Of a stretch of DNA of 21,453 nt, positions 6,115-19,253 are shown piece by piece (position 1 is the first letter of the stretch; the number at the start of each line of letters is the position of its first letter). The notes under the pieces were generated by a model, which did not search any database, was not told where the DNA came from, and saw only the letters and a list, made by a program, of their open reading frames with translations. The DNA comes from a virus (lineage: Duplodnaviria; Heunggongvirae; Uroviricota; Caudoviricetes). The position numbers and the translations under genes are program-made. The DNA lies in the IMG/VR virus record IMGVR_UViG_648276652_000012; one strand, 5' to 3'.

Positions 6115-7230
6115 TTAAATCCCTGCTTTTCTGAATACCTGTGCATCACGCTCACGGAGTTGCTTCAGCGTCAGCCATTCGCCTTTATCGGTGTAAAATT
6201 CATCTGGCGACATACCGCCATCCCGAATCAGCTTTGCCCGGGTTTCCCCCACAATCTGTTTTTGTCTGGTGTAAGGCTGACGCAAAAACCATTCCCTGTA
6301 GGTTGTATCTCCGGCCACCACGCCATCCATGCTGGCCCGCTCAGCCGGGGAAATATCACGAACATCAATACCCAGTTCCTTCGCTGATTTCAGAATGAAC
6401 GTTTCCGTTGAGCGGCAGCAGAAATGAATTTTTCCCGGCCCATGCAAATAAGGCACACTGTGACCTACAGGTTTATTATCCAGCGTATATTTGAGGCGAT
6501 CCCTGATTCGACATTGTGGCGTAGTACGATTATCAAGCGTTGATAACCATTGCTTACCCTTAATCAAATCATTATTCGCGCTGGCAAAACTCTCACGGGC
6601 AGTAGCAGCAAGATGTCCAACCGCTGTTTTTGCAATGCTGGCCGCATTAGCCCGGCTCATCTGCAATGCACCATCCTGAAATCCCTTGCTGACATGTCCC
6701 CGAATTTTTCTTGCGATCTGCTCATTGGTATCCCCCAGCAAAAAACCCTGACGCACCGTATTTGTTATGCGTCTGAGCCGATCCGCCTCAAGATCCAAGG
6801 CCCACTCACTGAGCAGTCGTCCCTGGAATGGTCGCGCCATTGCAGCGGCGTAAAGTGCATCAGAAGATATACCAACCAGAGGGTGAACATCAGCAACAAA
6901 ATCAGGTAGCAGAGAATCAAACAGACTTAACTGATAACCAGCCTCATAAATTGCCAGCTCGTTCAGCTCTCCGGAGAGACTGGTAAACATGCTGTTAATA
7001 GCAGCGCGGTTAACCTCTCTGACACTCGCCAGAAGTGACTCCAGGCGCGTAACGGTAAAACTACCAGGATCGAGGCTGTCCAGTGCTACCAGCAGGCGAG
7101 CTGTAAGCTCCGCATCGCTGTCATTCAGTATTTTCACCATTCTGGCAGCCACACCAGTGCTATAGCGGGATATCCAGACTGCATGAGCAATTGATTCATC
7201 ACGCAGCCGTTCATTCACGGTTTGCATCAT
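6115..7230 (-). CDS. head morphogenesis protein (Mu F / SPP1 gp7-like minor head protein)
   Basis: 371-aa ORF directly downstream of the portal gene, overlapping its stop by 20 nt; size and position typical of this family. Confidence 0.7.
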   Translation of the reverse strand: MMQTVNERLRDESIAHAVWISRYSTGVAARMVKILNDSDAELTARLLVALDSLDPGSFTVTRLESLLASVREVNRAAINSMFTSLSGELNELAIYEAGYQLSLFDSLLPDFVADVHPLVGISSDALYAAAMARPFQGRLLSEWALDLEADRLRRITNTVRQGFLLGDTNEQIARKIRGHVSKGFQDGALQMSRANAASIAKTAVGHLAATARESFASANNDLIKGKQWLSTLDNRTTPQCRIRDRLKYTLDNKPVGHSVPYLHGPGKIHFCCRSTETFILKSAKELGIDVRDISPAERASMDGVVAGDTTYREWFLRQPYTRQKQIVGETRAKLIRDGGMSPDEFYTDKGEWLTLKQLRERDAQVFRKAGI

Positions 7231-8619: not shown

Positions 8620-9921
8620 TTAAATCCGAAGTGATGTGACTCTTCCGGTCGGTTTGACAATAGGGAATTGCTTAACGATGAAATAACCTCCGGCATCATT
8701 CGGGTGATCATTGCCAGATTTTTTATCAGGCTCCCCCTTATCATCCCAGACCTGTTGCTCCAGAGATTCGGCATATACCGGACAACGCTTCACATTAACT
8801 TTATAGCGACGCTCACCATTGGCATTGCAGAACATTGCATTCATTGAGTTAACGCGATCTTTTACTGGCGGGTTCGAGCTGTTCACCACAACGTTAAAAC
8901 CTGCCTGCTTAAGCTGGGCTATATCCGTCGTACTTGCGTTACTTGATTTTCTGGAATCTCCGGAAGCATCTGGATAAATATAAATCTCCCTCACTTTCCG
9001 GTAATCATGCCCGTCATACAGCCAGAAGCGTTCTTTAATGAGGCGGATCATATCCGGCGTATCGTAGGCATTGATGATTTCAGTTACCGCACATGGAAGC
9101 CCCAAACGCAGCACATGGACGATTCCCGCCATCTTTCCAACGTTAAAATCCATCCCAATATAAATCGGCTCCCCTGGCTGCTCCACTTCTTCGCAATTAT
9201 TCAGTTTCCGGTCAAACTGATGGTAAACAGTACCACTTGTCAGGTTAGTAAACCGTCCTAGAAGATAGGCTTTAATCAGCTCTGGAGGGTATGATTCAAG
9301 AAGTGAAGGAATGTAATCTGCTGGCAGGTTCTTTTCATTATCGAAAGTAGATGCCTGCACCAGACCATACAGTGAGGCCAGCTCTGTTTTTTCACGCACG
9401 GCTTTAACAAACTGCTCGTAGACAAATTTGAATCCTTCCGGCGTGGTTGTAACGTCAATACCGTTGCGAAGTCCATCAATCTTATAACGCATACGCGCAA
9501 TTATCTTGCGCCACGCCGTTCTGGCTTTTTCCTTCGGCAAAATGTCCAGTTCATCCACCAGCGCATTACCAATTTTGAAACCGACGATCGTTTGTGGCTT
9601 CTCCATCGATCTGCAGATAGTGGTTCCCCGATACTGGCGTCCGTAATAAAAGTGAACCTCTTTATTTCCCTCATTAATTTTTACGTTCAATCCCCAGTCA
9701 GCAGCAACTTCTTCCACTGTAGGGTAAAAAATATCGCGAATTTGGGGATACGTTGGCGCAAAATATCCCTGATTTATACCTGGATGCTCCCAAATCCCCT
9801 TGCATATGCCGCCACACCCAACCCATGTTTTGCCCGAGCCAAAACCAGCAATATAGGCTTTAAATTTATGGGGCATTGAAAGAAATCGCGCCTGAGGCAC
9901 ATTAAGCGTCGGAGAGATCAT
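8620..9921 (-). CDS. terminase large subunit
   Basis: Walker A motif AGFGSGKT near the N-terminus and an acidic nuclease-like C-terminal half. Start set at the ATG at 9921 (AAGGAG 8 nt upstream); the ORF-track start at 9930 is GTG. Confidence 0.85.
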   Translation of the reverse strand: MISPTLNVPQARFLSMPHKFKAYIAGFGSGKTWVGCGGICKGIWEHPGINQGYFAPTYPQIRDIFYPTVEEVAADWGLNVKINEGNKEVHFYYGRQYRGTTICRSMEKPQTIVGFKIGNALVDELDILPKEKARTAWRKIIARMRYKIDGLRNGIDVTTTPEGFKFVYEQFVKAVREKTELASLYGLVQASTFDNEKNLPADYIPSLLESYPPELIKAYLLGRFTNLTSGTVYHQFDRKLNNCEEVEQPGEPIYIGMDFNVGKMAGIVHVLRLGLPCAVTEIINAYDTPDMIRLIKERFWLYDGHDYRKVREIYIYPDASGDSRKSSNASTTDIAQLKQAGFNVVVNSSNPPVKDRVNSMNAMFCNANGERRYKVNVKRCPVYAESLEQQVWDDKGEPDKKSGNDHPNDAGGYFIVKQFPIVKPTGRVTSLRI

Positions 9922-10996
9922 CTTCATCACTCCTTAATCTGGCATCAACCACATTAATATTGATCGCCACAGGCTGGGGATGTTCATTATCCTCCACCGT
10001 TTCGATCTCTTTGCGCAGCTTCTGGTTCTCTATTCTGCGCCGTTCAATTTCCAGTTCCTGTAGCCGCTTATCTGCACATAATGCCCCGCCAGCAGAAAGC
10101 AAACGCAACAATTCACGCCGGGCGGCAGCCTTATCCTCCAGCAGGATCTCAACACCGTATTTTCCGAGCTTTGACCCTGCATATAATTGCCGCGCATCCC
10201 CATCAAGCAGTGTGGTATCAGCCATATAAAGCTGTCCTGTTCCCTCACCGCAGCACTTCGGGCAATCAGGATTGGGTATGGCGTTATCAACAAAGCCGAG
10301 GCCTCCATATTCCGGCTCGGGTTTACCATCTCTGGAGGCCTGTGCCGCAGCCTTATCGAATTCTGCAATATCACGCCACTGGTAGAGATGATTCTCGCCC
10401 CAGCAATAACGGCAGTTAACACGGCGAAATTGTGCCAACTGATTGGGGTCGGCCTGGACAATGGCCATCAACTGGCTCACCAGTAAATCCAGGTCTGCGG
10501 TATAGCGTTTCTGGTACTGATTGCGGAAGTAGCTGATAGCACGATAAACCCTGGCATTTCTAAGCATACGGCTGGCGTTGCTGTTAGCTGTCGCACCTTG
10601 CCCCTCATAACCAGCCAGTCGGTATGCCTCTGTCGGCTTTTTCCCCTGAGCAACCAACATGGCGAATTTTGCCTGCTGGTCAGAAATACCGAATTCATCG
10701 GGGCAGAACGAAATTTCTTCCGTGTCCCCCTCAATCAGGAGTGCATCGGATACAGCCTTTTTTTTCTGAGATTTTCCGTTCTGCCTTTGCGCAGTCTGCG
10801 CAGTTTTTTTTCGCGCACTTTTTTGCGCAGTTTTGCGCATTTCTTTCTGCGCATTTTTCGGAGTTTTTTTGATGTAACGACGGGCTGTTGCGTAGTTCAG
10901 TCCCCTTGCTTCACACCATGCCACCGGAGATATACCGGAGCGGGTGTATTCAGCAATATACTCCTGCTGCAACGCCCCCCAGTCCGGTCTGCTCAT
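9902..10996 (-). CDS. terminase small subunit-like DNA-binding protein with an atypical extended architecture
   Basis: 364-aa ORF directly upstream of the large terminase gene. N-terminal helix-turn-helix-like segment, a Lys/Gln/Ala-rich low-complexity stretch, CRYC...CPKCC cysteine pairs, and a C-terminal coiled-coil with an acidic tail. Confidence 0.55.
   Translation of the reverse strand: MSRPDWGALQQEYIAEYTRSGISPVAWCEARGLNYATARRYIKKTPKNAQKEMRKTAQKSARKKTAQTAQRQNGKSQKKKAVSDALLIEGDTEEISFCPDEFGISDQQAKFAMLVAQGKKPTEAYRLAGYEGQGATANSNASRMLRNARVYRAISYFRNQYQKRYTADLDLLVSQLMAIVQADPNQLAQFRRVNCRYCWGENHLYQWRDIAEFDKAAAQASRDGKPEPEYGGLGFVDNAIPNPDCPKCCGEGTGQLYMADTTLLDGDARQLYAGSKLGKYGVEILLEDKAAARRELLRLLSAGGALCADKRLQELEIERRRIENQKLRKEIETVEDNEHPQPVAININVVDARLRSDEDDLSDA
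10755..10870. repeat. periodic T-tract plus (T/C)GCGCA repeat array inside the small terminase gene
   Basis: Six copies of tgcgca/cgcgca at 10788, 10797, 10812, 10824, 10834 and 10848, each preceded by a T4-T8 tract; spacing 9-15 bp. Confidence 0.6.
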
Positions 10997-10999
10997 CAG

Positions 11000-11251
11000 T
11001 TAGTCCTGATTTTTATCCACCCTGAGTAGTTCGCGCAGAGCAAAGGCATCCCCTTTTCTGGCAAGCTTAAACAATGCCGCTCGTAACTCGGCTTCACCTT
11101 TCGCTCTGCCCTTACGGATGGCCGCATAAAAATCTGTCATTGCTTCCCGATTTTCTTTCAGTCGGTTCAGATCAACATCCAGAACGTCAGCGATTTGTTG
11201 TGCAGTCATCCGGCACGCTGCCAGAGACTCGACTTTCGAATACGGAATCAT
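11000..11251 (-). CDS. small hypothetical protein with a possible helix-turn-helix
   Basis: 83-aa ORF ending 3 nt before the small terminase start; ATG at 11251 has GGGGGTG upstream. Overlaps the 3' end of the upstream gene by 65 nt, so the start is uncertain. Confidence 0.4.
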   Translation of the reverse strand: MIPYSKVESLAACRMTAQQIADVLDVDLNRLKENREAMTDFYAAIRKGRAKGEAELRAALFKLARKGDAFALRELLRVDKNQD

Positions 11252-12119
11252 TTGTCACCCCCATTGATATGCAGGGTGTCTTCTTCCTGTATTTTTCGTG
11301 AAGGATTTTTACTGCAGCGTTGTTCCAGGTGACCTGATGGTGAATGCGTTTATGGCTGGCACCCATCAGTGAGATTTTTACGCACGACGGCGAATACATG
11401 ACGGAGTAAAAACTTTTAACGTAGGTTCCGGAATCCAGATACAGCTCGGTCATTCCGCCGCTGTTTTTCTGCGTCTGTTTCTGCCCTAACTGGACAGCAC
11501 CGATCGTCATAAACAATTCACCACAGCGACCGAGATTCGTGTACGTATTCACATCCTCGTTAATGCGCCCCATGAATGAGAACGGTCGATCAACCGAACA
11601 GATAAAGCTGTTCATTGCCTTGCGTTTCACCCACGAAGCATGGCCGCCATTGTCACCAAGAAAATCCCCGCCCTGCGACATAGCGATGGAAAGCGCGGGT
11701 ATTGATTCGTAATACGCCAGCATTTCAGAAAGGATCGCATCCAGTTTCCTTATCGGGAAATAGGCCTGGTCATAGTTGCGATCCACCCGAAACTGGAACT
11801 CGTGATAATCATCATCGAGCTGAATGAAGTATTTACACCCGACCAGTTTTGCCAGGTCGAAACAGGCATTACGGGCGTAAAAAATTGAGCGGCGATCACC
11901 AAAATTATCGGCTTCGTCAAAACGACTGGCAATATCGGCTTTGGAAAATACCAGCACCTGTTCACCAAATTCAGCCATGTACTGATGCCGTGTCTTATCT
12001 TCATCATCAACAACGATAAAAATTTTCCCGGTATAGCCAGCACGACGCAACGTCCGGTAAGTCAGAACTTTGTCCGGTCGCCCGTGAGTCAGAATAAAGG
12101 CGCAAAAATCATCACGCAT
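11187..12119 (-). CDS. GT-A-like putative nucleotide-sugar transferase (glycosyltransferase motifs)
   Basis: N-terminal FILTHGRPDKV...KIFIVVDDED resembles the GT2-type sugar-nucleotide binding signature; a downstream QLDDDYHEF resembles a DXD motif. No predicted transmembrane stretch. Start set at the ATG at 12119, preceded by GGAGGAGGAGGAGG. Motif-based call, not verified. Confidence 0.5.
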   Translation of the reverse strand: MRDDFCAFILTHGRPDKVLTYRTLRRAGYTGKIFIVVDDEDKTRHQYMAEFGEQVLVFSKADIASRFDEADNFGDRRSIFYARNACFDLAKLVGCKYFIQLDDDYHEFQFRVDRNYDQAYFPIRKLDAILSEMLAYYESIPALSIAMSQGGDFLGDNGGHASWVKRKAMNSFICSVDRPFSFMGRINEDVNTYTNLGRCGELFMTIGAVQLGQKQTQKNSGGMTELYLDSGTYVKSFYSVMYSPSCVKISLMGASHKRIHHQVTWNNAAVKILHEKYRKKTPCISMGVTNDSVFESRVSGSVPDDCTTNR

Positions 12120-12906
12120 ATTCCTCCTCCTCCTCCCCGCCATGCATGATCTCCACCATGCGCTGCGTCATTCGGACAAATCCATTTTCAATAGCCTGCT
12201 GATAATCAATGATCACCAGCGCCGACTCCTCGAAAAGGCACTGAATTTCAGCGGGGGCATGAGCGTAATAGTCCGCAATTCTGCTGAAATTAAACACTGT
12301 GTGACGTTCTGCCGCACACAGGAGGAATTTCTCAATATCAGGATCAAGGGACGCCGAACGTATCCGGCTGATCAGCTCCTGAGTTTTCGTATCGTCGTAC
12401 AGTTCACTGATATCCGGTTTACCGCCCGACGGCTCATAAACAGGCGTATCAATTTTCGTCGTATACGGCTCCTCCTCATTTCCTGTACCGGGCAAAACAT
12501 CCGTCAACAGTTCATCAATTTCTGTCGGGATGAAGCCTGTCAGGGAGACATCAAAATCAGCATTGATTAGGTCCGACAGCTCCATCCGCAACAGATCTTC
12601 ATCCCAGCCAGCATTCATCGGCAGGCGATTATCTGCCAGGCGGTACGCCTTTTTCTGCTCATCCGTCAGGCCAGACAGAACAATGACCGGAACAGAATCC
12701 ATTTTGAGCATTTCAGCCGCCATAACACGACCGTGACCCGCAATAATTTCGCCCTTTTCGTCAATCAGCACCGGATTAGTCCAGCCGAATTGCTTAATAC
12801 TTTCTACCAGTTGTGCCACCTGCTCAGGGCTGTGCGTCCTGGCGTTGTGCGCATACGGTGACAATTCTTGTAATGGGCGATAGACTATCTTTAATTTCTC
12901 GCTCAT
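12112..12906 (-). CDS. ParB-like nuclease domain (ParB/Srx N-terminal domain) protein
   Basis: N-terminal region PLQELSPYAHNARTHSPEQVAQLVESIKQFGWTNPVLIDEKGEIIAGHGRVMAA fits the ParB/sulfiredoxin-fold pattern; acidic C-terminus (GGEEEEEYA). Confidence 0.7.
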   Translation of the reverse strand: MSEKLKIVYRPLQELSPYAHNARTHSPEQVAQLVESIKQFGWTNPVLIDEKGEIIAGHGRVMAAEMLKMDSVPVIVLSGLTDEQKKAYRLADNRLPMNAGWDEDLLRMELSDLINADFDVSLTGFIPTEIDELLTDVLPGTGNEEEPYTTKIDTPVYEPSGGKPDISELYDDTKTQELISRIRSASLDPDIEKFLLCAAERHTVFNFSRIADYYAHAPAEIQCLFEESALVIIDYQQAIENGFVRMTQRMVEIMHGGEEEEEYA

Positions 12907-13043: not shown

Positions 13044-14501
13044 TTAGGAGCGCCAAAAAAAACCTGAAAACAATATAATAACAGGATAAATTTCAAGGCG
13101 ACCAAGAATCATAGCTATGCACATTAAACATTTTGCAATGTCATTAAGCACTCCGAATGACGATGCAGTAGCCCCAAAACCTAATCCCATATTATTAATA
13201 CATGCAGCCACTGTTGCAAATGATGTAAGAAAATCATATCCCATACCATTTAACACCAGTATAAAAAACACCGTGAAGAGAGTATAAAGAAAAAAGAAAC
13301 TCCATACAGACCTCATTACACGATCTGTAACTATCTTCCCTCCTACATTTACACTCAACAACGCTCTGGGATGAGAAAGCTGATTTATCTCGTGTTTGCT
13401 TTGTTTGAAAAGTATAAGAAATCGAAGTGACTTAATTCCACCACAAGTTGAACCTATACATCCCCCAAAGAAACTTGACAACAGCAAAAACACTATCGTG
13501 TGCGTGGGCCAACTTGCATAATCCTGCGTAGCTAAACCATTATCAGTGAGCATGGAGCTGGCAAGAAAAAACGAATGAATAAAACTTCCATGCAAGTCAT
13601 ACATACCTATATGCCAGACCTGGAAAGAGGTAACAATGATCACCCCTAAGGCTATTAACAGAAAGAAACGAAGTTCAATATCTCTGATTAAAGGTTTTAT
13701 CGTTTTCCTGCTAATAACAATATACCAAAGAGTGAAGTTGAAAGCCGATAGCAGGGAAAAAGAACCAGCCACCAGCTCAACCAAATAGTTATTAAAATAT
13801 CCGATACTCTCGCTATGAGTTGAGAAACCACCAAGCGAAACTGTGGAAATCCCGTGACAAATAGCATCAAACAAAGGCATTCCTGCAAGTCTATAACAGA
13901 CAATACAAGCAATACCTAATAAAGAATAAGTTATCCACAGTGTCCGTGACGTATCGGCCAGGCGGGGAGTGAGTTTGTCATCCTTAAATGGCCCCGGCAT
14001 TTCTGACTGATAAAGCTTTGCACCACCAATACCCAATAATGGCAATACAGCAACCGCCAGAACAATAACTCCTAAACCACCTATAAAATTTAACTGTGAC
14101 CGATAGTACAAATATGCCCGAGGTAATGAACTAACATCATCAATTACAGTTGCTCCTGTTGTTGTTATTCCAGAAACCCCTTCAAACAGAGCATCAATGA
14201 ACGTTAAATTAAGTTCTGAGTCAATCCATAAAGGGAATGCACTAATAACAGAAAACAAAATCCAAAACATTACAATTATAATAAACCCATCACGGGTACG
14301 TAATTGAATGCCAGATTTCTTAGTTGTATACCACGCTCCGCCACCAATGCAAAAAAATATAACGAAAGTTATAAAGAAAACGAACAGGCTTTTTTCTTTA
14401 TAAAACAATGCTACAACCATTGGTGGCAACATTGAAAGACTATAGAGCCAAACCAGGAACCCACACATATGAGTAACAACTCTTACATGAGATGTATTCA
14501 T
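13044..14501 (-). CDS. trkG: Trk-system potassium uptake protein TrkG (TrkH/KtrB family)
   Basis: 485-aa polytopic membrane protein starting MNTSHVRVVTHMCGFLVWLYSL..., recognised from memory as E. coli TrkG. Markedly AT-rich compared with flanking phage genes. Start trimmed from the TTG at 14519 to the ATG at 14501. Confidence 0.9.
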   Translation of the reverse strand: MNTSHVRVVTHMCGFLVWLYSLSMLPPMVVALFYKEKSLFVFFITFVIFFCIGGGAWYTTKKSGIQLRTRDGFIIIVMFWILFSVISAFPLWIDSELNLTFIDALFEGVSGITTTGATVIDDVSSLPRAYLYYRSQLNFIGGLGVIVLAVAVLPLLGIGGAKLYQSEMPGPFKDDKLTPRLADTSRTLWITYSLLGIACIVCYRLAGMPLFDAICHGISTVSLGGFSTHSESIGYFNNYLVELVAGSFSLLSAFNFTLWYIVISRKTIKPLIRDIELRFFLLIALGVIIVTSFQVWHIGMYDLHGSFIHSFFLASSMLTDNGLATQDYASWPTHTIVFLLLSSFFGGCIGSTCGGIKSLRFLILFKQSKHEINQLSHPRALLSVNVGGKIVTDRVMRSVWSFFFLYTLFTVFFILVLNGMGYDFLTSFATVAACINNMGLGFGATASSFGVLNDIAKCLMCIAMILGRLEIYPVIILFSGFFWRS

Positions 14502-14638
14502 ATCTAAATATTCTTTCAATTATAACCACCTTGCTGCAATATTATGATTATACTGTATAAAATTTAACTCCTCTTAGATCTTACTTCACTGTTCCTTATG
14601 AAACAATCATCAAAATGAATCATATTGTAGTTAAGATT

Positions 14639-18119: not shown

Positions 18120-18292
18120 TTCCTCGCACGATGTCTTAGCCACCGGATATCCCACAGGTGAGCCGTGTAGTTGAAGGTTTTTACGTCAGATTCTTTTGGG
18201 ATTGGCTTGCGTTTATTTCTGGAGCGTTTCGTTGGAAGGTATTTGCAGTTTTCGCAGATGATGTCGGTGAAACTTCGTCGCTGTCGCCTCAT
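18116..18292 (-). CDS. ninE: NinE
   Basis: 58 aa, [58 protein letters not shown]; recognised from memory as lambda NinE-like. ATG overlaps the methylase stop (ATGA). Confidence 0.85.
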
Positions 18293-18816
18293 GCCGCCCT
18301 CCTGACGCCCTGCCCGATCGCTATCAATGCCGCTTTGGATACGGTAGTAAACATCCGTCGAGGACTGATGAACGGTCGCCAAATCAGCAGCATGGAGCCT
18401 TTGCTGTTTCCCTTCTTCTCCAGCCCCGTCGATGGTTCGATAAAATTAATCCGTCCATCAGTGATAATGCGAACTTCGTCGACACTCTCCAGAGCCTTGC
18501 TGAACCATCCGACTGACATATCCTCTGGCACAAGCATCACTACCGTCTGTCGCTGTTGTATGCACTGCTCAGCGGCTTTTTCCACCCACGGCCTGATATT
18601 GCTGTACGGTGGGTTATTCCAGATTGCACCGTGGCTTACCCACTCAGAATTGAGCGCGTCGTCGGCCTCAGTTAGCCAGTGAGCACACAGAGCATTTTTG
18701 TCGCTCGCTGCCGAATCCAGCCAGAATCCAAACTCAATATCCAGTGCATCAAAAAGCCAAAGCGGCGTTTGCCAGCAGTCCTTGTCGTGTGCTGGCGTAT
18801 TTGATTTGATAGTCAT
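18289..18816 (-). CDS. phage-type DNA N6-adenine methyltransferase (Dam-like)
   Basis: 175 aa with DKDCWQTP near the N-terminus and the NPPY catalytic motif; ATG at 18816 overlaps the ninB stop (ATGA). Occupies the slot where lambda has ninC/ninD. Confidence 0.8.
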
Positions 18817-19253
18817 GCAGCCCGATCTCCCCATCTCGCTTTCCACTCCAGAGCCAGTCTCGCTTCGTCTGACCACTTAACGCCACGCTCTGTACCGAAT
18901 GCCTGTATAAGCTCTAATAGCTCCGCAAATTCGCCTACACGCATCCTGCTGGTTGACTGGCCTATTACCACAAAGCCATTCCCGGCAAGGTTAGGAACAA
19001 CATCCTGCTGCTTTAATGCTGCGGTAAACACACACTTCCAGCTTTCTGCATCCAGCCAGCGACCATGCCATTCAACCTGACGAGAGACGTCACCTAAGCA
19101 GGCCCATAGCTTCCTGTTTTGGTCTAAGCTGCGGTTGCGTTCCTGAATGGTTACTACGATTGGTTTGGTTGGGTCTGGAAGGATTTGCTGTACTGCGTGA
19201 ATAGCGTTTTGCTGATGTGCTGGAGATCGAATTTCAAAGGTTAGTTTTTTCAT
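18813..19253 (-). CDS. ninB: NinB (Orf) recombination protein
   Basis: 146 aa, MKKLTFEIRSPAHQQNAIHAVQQILPDPTKPIVVTIQERNRSLDQNRKLWACLGDVSRQVEWHGRW...; recognised from memory as lambda NinB. Confidence 0.9.
   Translation of the reverse strand: MKKLTFEIRSPAHQQNAIHAVQQILPDPTKPIVVTIQERNRSLDQNRKLWACLGDVSRQVEWHGRWLDAESWKCVFTAALKQQDVVPNLAGNGFVVIGQSTSRMRVGEFAELLELIQAFGTERGVKWSDEARLALEWKARWGDRAA

Follow-up and report, generated by a model that had tools for sequence, protein, structure and literature searches.

The subject of this analysis is a cluster of short repeats inside the small terminase gene (terS) of a lambdoid Rac-type prophage of Escherichia coli, contained in the IMG/VR virus record IMGVR_UViG_648276652_000012. 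The whole stretch of 21,453 nucleotides (nt) that was analysed is referred to as the window hereafter, and the prophage is read on its minus strand. Within terS, six units of the hexamer type TGCGCA lie in a span of 66 bp, which is referred to as the array and is a candidate for the recognition part of the packaging initiation (pac) site of the prophage. The features on which the argument depends are as follows (HTH, helix-turn-helix; AF2, AlphaFold2), with the hexamers numbered in gene order.

9902–10996, minus strand: terS, small terminase of 364 amino acids (aa), with an HTH, a linker, a Terminase_2 core carrying a four-Cys insert, and a C-terminal tail
10868–10996, minus strand: TerS residues 1–43, putative PacA-like/transposase-like HTH (BLASTP; PHROG, PDB and NCBIfam profiles; AF2)
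10880–10882, minus strand: codon of TerS R39, in the predicted recognition helix ..ATARRYIK..
10715–10867, minus strand: TerS residues 44–94, Lys/Gln/Ala-rich linker holding the array (AF2 pLDDT < 50; low peptide conservation)
10788–10853, no strand assigned: hexamer array, candidate pac recognition element (motif scan, synonymous resampling, homolog conservation)
10848–10853, no strand assigned: hexamer 1, TGCGCA, coding N-A-Q; intact in 38 of 38 close relatives
10834–10839, no strand assigned: hexamer 2, TGCGCA, read aTG CGC Aaa and coding M-R-K; intact in 29 of 38
10824–10829, no strand assigned: hexamer 3, TGCGCA, coding T-A-Q; intact in 37 of 38
10812–10817, no strand assigned: hexamer 4, degenerate (CGCGCA on the plus strand), coding S-A-R; TGCGCA in 29 of 38
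10797–10802, no strand assigned: hexamer 5, TGCGCA, coding T-A-Q; intact in 36 of 38
10788–10793, no strand assigned: hexamer 6, TGCGCA, coding T-A-Q; intact in 23 of 38, the lowest figure among the in-frame copies

The array consists of five copies of TGCGCA (plus-strand starts 10788, 10797, 10824, 10834 and 10848) and one CGCGCA at 10812, which is TGCGCG on the coding strand, and the successive spacings are 9, 15, 12, 10 and 14 bp. The original prediction, made from the letters of the stretch, had described six GCGCA units at 9–15 bp spacing within about 70 bp of the Lys/Gln-rich part of a putative TerS, and the motif scan bore this out; the repeated motif extends beyond GCGCA to the full palindrome TGCGCA, a 6-bp sequence that is its own reverse complement. 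The motif of the array can be written TGCGCA/G, and no GATC is contained in it. Five of the 12 TGCGCA copies in the window fall in these 66 bp, for which a first-order scan-statistic bound of 3.5e-7 was obtained, and the nearest further YGCGCA/TGCGCR sites are at 11032 and 10191. In the gene, the array occupies nt 143–208 and codes for TerS residues about 48–70 (KNAQKEMRKTAQKSARKKTAQTAQR). On the coding strand, five units share one frame (xxT-GCG-CAr/CGa, that is, x-Ala-Gln/Arg), and the sixth is read in a different frame (aTG-CGC-Aaa, Met-Arg-Lys).

The number of hexamers was compared with that expected from the peptide by synonymous resampling, in which the peptide of TerS residues 41–80 was fixed and the codons were drawn from the window's own usage in 50,000 trials. 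On average, a trial yielded about 0.6 TGCGCA copies, and none yielded more than 4, against 5 observed. The same procedure applied to 31 non-redundant family members (less than about 85% nucleotide similarity) gave 174 observed motif copies against 19.8 expected, and the per-array P was ≤ 0.0015 for all of them except for the GATC array of a Shiga-toxin (Stx) phage (P = 0.0125). The mapped pac of phage P1, used as a positive control, gave 8 observed against 2.4 expected. Among the 31 representatives, no homolog was found that keeps the same peptide with recoded hexamers.

The homologs were collected by a profile scan of the genome collection with a TerS alignment. Prophages were found in Serratia, Superficieibacter, Pseudescherichia, Scandinavium, Erwinia, Pantoea, Kluyvera and Citrobacter, with TerS proteins 37–54% identical to that of the window, and those retaining the N-terminal domain carry 4–8 TGCGCA each at nt ~130–330 of the gene, with about one copy in the remainder of each open reading frame (ORF). 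E. coli phage PHB10, whose TerS is 33.9% identical, has three copies at the same place, and Aeromonas phage phiARM81mr and the Stx-type phages, which share the N-terminal module only, likewise carry TGCGCA there. The linker peptide is poorly conserved among the homologs while the hexamers persist: all three frames are used (x-Ala-Gln, Leu/Met/Val-Arg-x and Cys-Ala), and the Ala codon is always GCG and its preceding codon always T-ending, while the third base of the Gln codon varies freely. For E. coli VE-F5, at 39% protein identity, the sole DNA BLAST match to a 401-bp query runs from the HTH-coding end into the first hexamers; this 401-bp region is matched in 897 of 5,426 complete E. coli genomes. 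The match is 100% in strains such as E. coli CFSAN061771, and a 91.5% relative is present in ETEC H10407. In the 38 close relatives, 4–6 hexamers are intact per sequence, and copies 1, 3 and 5 are nearly invariant. A check proposed with the original prediction, whether the repeat is kept at the DNA level beyond what the protein needs, was thus answered in the affirmative by the resampling and by the conservation across genera. From these comparisons, the array is judged to be a DNA-level element maintained beyond the peptide requirement.

The array lies directly behind the part of terS that codes for the putative HTH. The TerS core matches Pfam Terminase_2 (PF03592, the SPP1 G1P family; residues 122–316, 36.1 bits against a cut-off of 26.1) and phrog_51 (E 6e-75). 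Residues 1–99 match other families, namely phrog_370, the Stx-phage small terminase family (E 1.6e-17), and phrog_1711, the P1 PacA family (E 2.2e-5, over residues 6–79). In a pairwise BLASTP comparison, TerS and P1 PacA were aligned over PacA residues 3–40 (E 0.007), with the shared pattern WxxxxxxxxxxxxGxxxxxxxxxxxLNxxTARRY[IL][KR]; by these matches, residues 1–43 are homologous to the PacA HTH. A weak PDB profile match to the HTH of IS21 IstA (E 0.058) aligned RKTVRKYI with NTARRYIK. The IS66 TnpA (E 1.4e-5), IS21 and IS3 models of NCBIfam also matched, all below their cut-offs. P1 PacA matches Pfam HTH_23 and HTH_28 weakly, and the Pfam search with the TerS N-terminus of the window gave no match. 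Since these weak matches place the domain with the transposase-type HTHs, ..TARRYIK.. is taken as the probable recognition helix. The AF2 model of the full TerS, computed from a shallow alignment, was poor overall (mean pLDDT 49) and was used for the pattern of order and disorder only: the HTH is helical (pLDDT 73–81), residues 44–94 fall below 50, and residues 99–163 are confident. A poorly ordered linker of about 50 residues is thus predicted between the HTH and the terminase core. A separate observation on this core is the invariant four-Cys pattern C195-x2-C198 ... C245-x2-C248 inserted in it, which resembles a zinc ribbon and persists in homologs of as little as 39% identity.

A clear correspondence was found between the sequence of this helix and the hexamer that follows it. 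The helix [TS]ARRY[IL]K occurs in 21 of the 31 representatives, which carry 2–8 TGCGCA (the 2 being from a frameshifted contig) and no TGCGAA/TTCGCA. The helix [TS]AKR[YH]IK occurs in 9, which carry 0–1 TGCGCA and 5–8 TGCGAA/TTCGCA. The remaining one, from an Stx phage, has the helix TARTRIK with two distal TGCGCA, no TGCGAA/TTCGCA and four YGATCAT. The AKR-type members (Yersinia vB_YenM phages, Providencia PSTCR3, Klebsiella RothD, Pasteurella Pmp11 and several IMG/VR contigs) carry TGCGAA(T) arrays, often as TGCGAATTCGCA. Pasteurella phage Pmp11 (L036 1640–1800) is a striking case in which the DNA motif appears to dictate an odd peptide: nine direct TGCGAA copies follow the HTH, with eight copies of the motif counted in gene nt 120–330, and they are coded as Cys-Glu or Ala-Asn (..EKCEQNCETAN..ENCETNCESNCETAK..). 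In all types, Arg39 pairs with C at hexamer position 5 (TGCGCA, TGATCA, YGATCA) and Lys39 with A (TGCGAA). When viral contigs with three closely spaced copies of either motif were collected by a scan of the DNA only, the TGCGCA arrays with the domain upstream and a readable helix 3 were all of the ARR type (74 of 74), and the TGCGAA arrays with the domain upstream were all of the AKR type (8 of 8). Among representatives of clusters at 50% identity, 190 clusters have the 46-residue domain, and in them the linker is AQ-rich behind an ARR helix and AN-rich behind an AK helix.

The two helix types are interspersed in the tree of residues 1–36, where some pairs are identical, and each type is shared by TerS proteins that differ in length class and in PHROG core family; helix 3 and the array are therefore, as far as these sequences tell, inherited together and apart from the rest of TerS. 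The HTH module is in fact found on unrelated cores, namely phrog_51 (the window), phrog_370 (the Stx type) and PacA, and no similarity was found between the TerS core of the window and the core of PacA or those of the Stx type. A reverse test starting from TGCGCA-N3-9-TGCGCA-N3-9-TGCGCA gave a consistent picture: of the first 120 viral contigs, 76 have a PacA-like domain on the same strand as the array, ending –10 to +26 nt before it, and 2 more are truncated members, the remaining contigs being mainly tandem peptide repeats or GC-rich chance matches.

Three further observations concern the range of the module. The Stx2-converting phages (933W/Sakai type; L038 1625–1770; L241–L279) have the same N-terminal HTH in the small terminase, with the helix TARTRIKMGK, followed by 4–5 YGATCAT at exact 12-bp spacing (five in L278; peptide IDHEIDHKTDHEIDHD); a distal TGCGCA pair lies ~60–100 nt further on, which makes a two-cluster layout like that of P1 pac. 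Two viral contigs (L193 241–873 and L210 6320–6973) code for proteins of ~210 residues with a distantly similar N-terminus (..DWE..DY.AG..SLR.IA....ES.IR..) and have three TGCGCA each, ~20 codons past that helix. The association of HTH and array may thus reach further small-terminase families, beyond those detected by the hidden Markov model. In the P1-like phage D6, pacA (L037 1501–2865) keeps the PacA HTH with the helix TARKHLN; neither a TGATCA nor a TGCGCA array is present in its first 420 nt, where inspection by eye showed only a few GGTGCRG-like repeats, and the pac motif of D6, if any, is on this sequence a different one.

The closest studied counterpart is pac of phage P1, whose hexamers TGATCA/G inside pacA were described by Sternberg and Coulby and by Skorupski et al., as summarised in PMC10028697. 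This pac is a 161-bp element in pacA with seven TGATCA/G repeats, which are Dam sites and as such control cleavage; when they were recoded synonymously, the titre of the phage fell about 9-fold (PMC10028697). On the annotated genome of P1 (pacA start L040:5530), the primary pac cuts are at gene nt 275–284, beside an IHF site, and TGATCA occurs at nt 193, 200, 212 and 227 and TGATC[AG] at 323, 335, 346 and 374, so that the clusters of nt 193–232 and 323–379 flank the annotated cleavage. The array of the window resembles this arrangement in several respects: multiple palindromic hexamers at irregular spacings of 7–15 bp lie in the 5′ part of a small-terminase gene, directly downstream of the homologous N-terminal HTH-coding part (..NTARRY..), and they occupy more than one reading frame in numbers above the synonymous expectation. 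The differences are that the motif is TGCGCA instead of TGATCA/G, so that no Dam control is expected at the window array, which lacks GATC; that the TerS core (Terminase_2 with the four-Cys insert) and the large terminase TerL are unrelated to PacA and PacB; and that the array resides in a lambdoid Rac-type prophage, whereas P1 is a plasmid prophage.

Other systems resemble the array less closely. G1P of SPP1/SF6 (PMC4737164; PMC9611059) shares its Pfam family with the TerS core, and the pac of that system (pacL, pacC, pacR) is likewise located where the terminase operon begins and has several short contacts; the proposed engagement of one DNA by many HTHs of one oligomer is also like the HTH ring of G1P. 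However, the reader is here taken to be an additional, tethered PacA-like HTH, which is absent from G1P, and the motif is an exact conserved hexamer, in contrast to the weak and largely sequence-independent binding of SPP1/SF6 TerS (PMC9611059). The pac of P22/Sf6, a headful lambdoid system, is likewise contained in the small terminase gene, and there mutations at wobble positions can separate the site from the protein (PMC11260489). That site, however, is a single asymmetric one of ~22 bp in the middle of the gene without a hexamer array, and P22 TerS has another fold family without a tethered N-terminal HTH. Phage lambda offers a further parallel in cosB, where the N-terminal winged HTH of gpNu1 reads the repeats R1–R3 beside the cut site; the lambda system differs in its fixed cohesive ends (cos), its 16-bp repeats outside coding sequence, its requirement for IHF and its domain family.

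The hexamers are flanked by T-runs of 4–8 nt (10758–10765, 10772–10775, 10804–10811, 10819–10824, 10831–10834, 10854–10858 and 10864–10870), and the original prediction had held that these tracts, spaced at helical periodicity, bend the DNA. This part of it fails, because Fourier and phase-coherence analysis gave a period of 11.5–12 bp for the tracts and hexamers, corresponding to four codons and not to the helical repeat: the AA/TT power was 3.87 at 12 bp against 0.30 in shuffles, and that at 10.5 bp (0.38) was not significant against them. A bent pac of the SPP1 type, with A-tracts in helical phase, was rejected on the same grounds, and such bending counts as a further difference from SPP1. 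The A/T tracts in the array are mostly Lys codons. They are also poorly conserved: the flanks of the hexamers in the homologs are A-rich to a moderate degree (54–72% A at the nearest positions), and some homologs, such as Aeromonas phiARM81mr and a Pantoea prophage, keep the hexamers with weak tracts or none. The conserved feature, as read from these alignments, is the hexamer and not an A-tract bend. On the coding strand, the runs at 10758–10765 and 10804–10811 are A8, in or next to the array, and numerous versions of terS in public collections share the N-terminus exactly but carry a frameshift or a truncation near the A-rich stretch (L085, L087, L118; P0121–P0131); these could be homopolymer sequencing errors or real slippage.

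Taken together, the evidence from sequence comparison and from analogy with P1 favours, with a probability of about 0.72, the reading that the array is the recognition part of the pac site of this prophage and works like the hexamer arrays of P1 pac. Very probably, it is bound by TerS's own N-terminal HTH to start genome packaging. Each HTH of the oligomeric TerS would bind one hexamer, and the flexible tethers would let several HTHs reach irregular sites 7–15 bp apart, so that many weak 6-bp contacts could sum to a specific and avid complex on the phage concatemer. This complex would recruit TerL, the presumed nuclease and motor, which would make the first cut nearby and open a headful packaging series. 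Of the original prediction of a pac/TerS recognition site inside terS, then, the recognition array is strongly supported by the comparative evidence, and the rationale from A/T-tract bending is not.

Because the site lies in the DNA that codes for the tether of the domain, reader and site would move as one cassette when terminase genes recombine. The sequences thus raise a broader proposal, for which we see even odds, that the HTH and the array form a portable, self-contained cassette of pac specificity, ~210 bp long, which has been grafted on at least three unrelated cores (the Rac/lambdoid Terminase_2 type, the Stx-phage type and P1 PacA) and follows a simple code at residue 39. In the searchable literature, no description of TGCGCA/TGCGAA arrays or of an HTH-array cassette in lambdoid or Stx phages was found. 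The P1 pac hexamers, by contrast, are already classical.

Several findings weigh against the array as a P1-like pac element read by this HTH. The mean spacing of ~12 bp is out of helical phase, so that it is not obvious how several HTHs could bind one face of the DNA at the same time. The window has one cluster of six, whereas P1 has 4 + 3 hexamers flanking the cut, and no second, distal hexamer cluster like those of P1 and the Stx phages was found in the window. P1 also needs IHF/HU, whereas no IHF consensus was found near the array, the only one in the window being at 6562. The proposed code meets two difficulties. One is that P1 PacA also has the helix ARRY yet uses TGATCA; since P1 and the window share ARRY and differ at hexamer positions 3–4, residue 39 is not the only determinant. 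Another is that the TARTRIK Stx phages have switched the proximal array to YGATCAT and kept the distal TGCGCA pair, so that a scheme of one HTH for one motif is too simple. The HTH assignment itself comes from sub-threshold profile matches, and helix 3 is short in the AF2 model, which is poor overall. Finally, the hexamer copies turn over among the 38 close relatives, copies 2 and 6 being often mutated, and variability there is not clearly lower in the hexamer columns than in the spacers (0.037 against 0.051), although this within-clade test is uninformative at such divergence.

Among the alternatives, the chief one is that the array is an operator through which the HTH of TerS regulates its own gene or the late operon, by a transcriptional roadblock or by translational feedback. 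All the evidence for HTH binding fits this equally well, and the site lies inside terS itself, 143–208 nt from the start codon; nevertheless, we regard it as improbable, because in the homologous studied system with the same layout, P1 PacA, the array is a pac site with mapped cleavage, and because a module found only on small terminases, with differing cores, fits packaging better than a generic regulator. Another alternative is that a low-complexity peptide repeat ((K/T/S)-A-Q-K) arose by slippage and brought the hexamers with it, without any function at the DNA level, as might be suspected from the common x-Ala-Gln/Arg frame of five of the six copies, from the four-codon period of 12 bp and from the variable copy number (4 or 5 units in Stx phages, 4–6 in close relatives). 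This explanation is largely refuted and the least credible of those considered, since the synonymous resampling never reaches the observed count, the GCG codon and the T preceding it are fixed while the third base of Gln is free, three frames are used with odd peptides forced (Cys-Glu, Cys-Ala, Leu-Arg), and the peptide diverges while the hexamer stays.

It is also very unlikely that the hexamers act through nucleic-acid structure, either as mRNA hairpins that tune TerS translation or as antisense terminators on the plus strand. The RNA of the coding strand does fold into three consecutive 6-bp hairpins (–29.5 kcal/mol against –18.2 in shuffles; z = –4.1), as would follow from the self-complementarity of TGCGCA, and sites with a terminator-like hairpin and a T-run are present on the plus strand at 10787–10803, 10824–10839 and 10834–10853. 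However, arrays with non-palindromic or GATC-containing motifs hold the same position behind the same domain and fold normally (z = +0.36 in Pmp11, –0.62 in a Yersinia phage, –1.1 in P1 and –0.31 in an Stx phage); structure is therefore not the conserved property. As an observation in its own right, terminator-like sites antisense to terS, built from hexamer pairs followed by T-tracts, number 4 in the scanned 900 bp against 1.0 expected. Their role may be to end antisense transcripts before these enter the late operon, or they may simply come with the array. Just as little weight is given to the hexamers being targets of some other protein, such as a methyltransferase or restriction system acting on a palindrome with GCGC, or a host or phage regulator. 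In its favour, the P1 hexamers double as Dam sites that control cleavage, and the window codes for a phage Dam-family methylase and, next to terS, for a ParB_N/TAGT-like gene pair. Against it, TGCGCA contains no GATC, the TGCGAA variant is not palindromic, and the motif tracks a residue of the adjacent HTH and no other gene. A search of the window for cytosine methylase domains, of GCGC or other specificity, found none; it gave only the Dam-family adenine methylase and a protein with ParB_N alone.

The order of genes around terS begins with replication genes O and P, NinB, the Dam-family methylase, NinX, NinG and Q, followed by holin, lysozyme and Rz; it goes on with a TrkH/TrkG-like transporter, the ParB_N-like gene, the TAGT-like glycosyltransferase gene and an 83-codon ORF, and ends with terS, terL, portal, a MuF-like gene, and coat and tail genes. 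The large terminase gene is as follows.

8620–9930, minus strand: terL, large terminase of 436 aa, Terminase_6N and Terminase_6C, overlapping terS by 29 nt

The nearest phage relatives of TerL (40–52% identity) are Jersey-, Dhillon- and Kaguna-like siphophages, which we take to be headful packagers. Neither a significant similarity to P1 PacB nor a match among PDB sequences was found for TerL. The related records named 'vB_EcoS' are in-silico prophages.

Several neighbouring genes deserve mention. Between the trkG-like gene and terS (11187–12906, minus strand) lie a TET-associated-glycosyltransferase-like gene (PF20691, E 6e-35) and the ParB_N-like gene, whose product matches only the ParB part of the PADLOC 'type II methyltransferase' model, and the 83-codon ORF (11000–11251) immediately precedes terS. 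No TET/JBP or methylase domain was found alongside the glycosyltransferase-like and ParB_N-like genes, which, from their domain content, may form a DNA-modification or anti-defence module. The gene for a TrkH/TrkG-family K+ transporter (13044–14519, minus strand; PF02386, E 5e-145) is located in the late operon between Rz and the packaging genes, the same place that trkG has in the Rac prophage of K-12. The phage Dam-family N6-adenine methyltransferase is coded at 18289–18876 on the minus strand (PF05869, E 2e-64); a P1-like control by methylation may operate in the Stx-phage relatives with GATC-containing arrays.

The TerS proteins of P22, Sf6, SF6 and SPP1 bind their own pac DNA weakly or non-specifically in vitro, and a 2022 review regarded the sequence-specific recognition of pac by TerS as still unresolved and controversial (PMC9611059). 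The array described here would provide a legible case of pac reading, in which an exact hexamer in 3–8 copies is paired with a small tethered HTH, and the natural Arg/Lys variants with their matching TGCGCA/TGCGAA arrays are suited to swap experiments. The element is also common, being frequent in E. coli genomes, and the same module is present in Shiga-toxin-converting phages. With a known pac and its orientation, the chromosomal regions mobilised by lateral or generalised transduction could be predicted, packaging signals for phagemid delivery could be designed, and self-packaging could be disabled by synonymous recoding, as was done for P1. If the proposal of a portable cassette is true, pac and packaging specificity would be predictable from sequence in many enterobacterial prophages, including Shiga-toxin phages, and these prophages would offer a tractable model, with natural specificity switches, for the recognition of pac by TerS.

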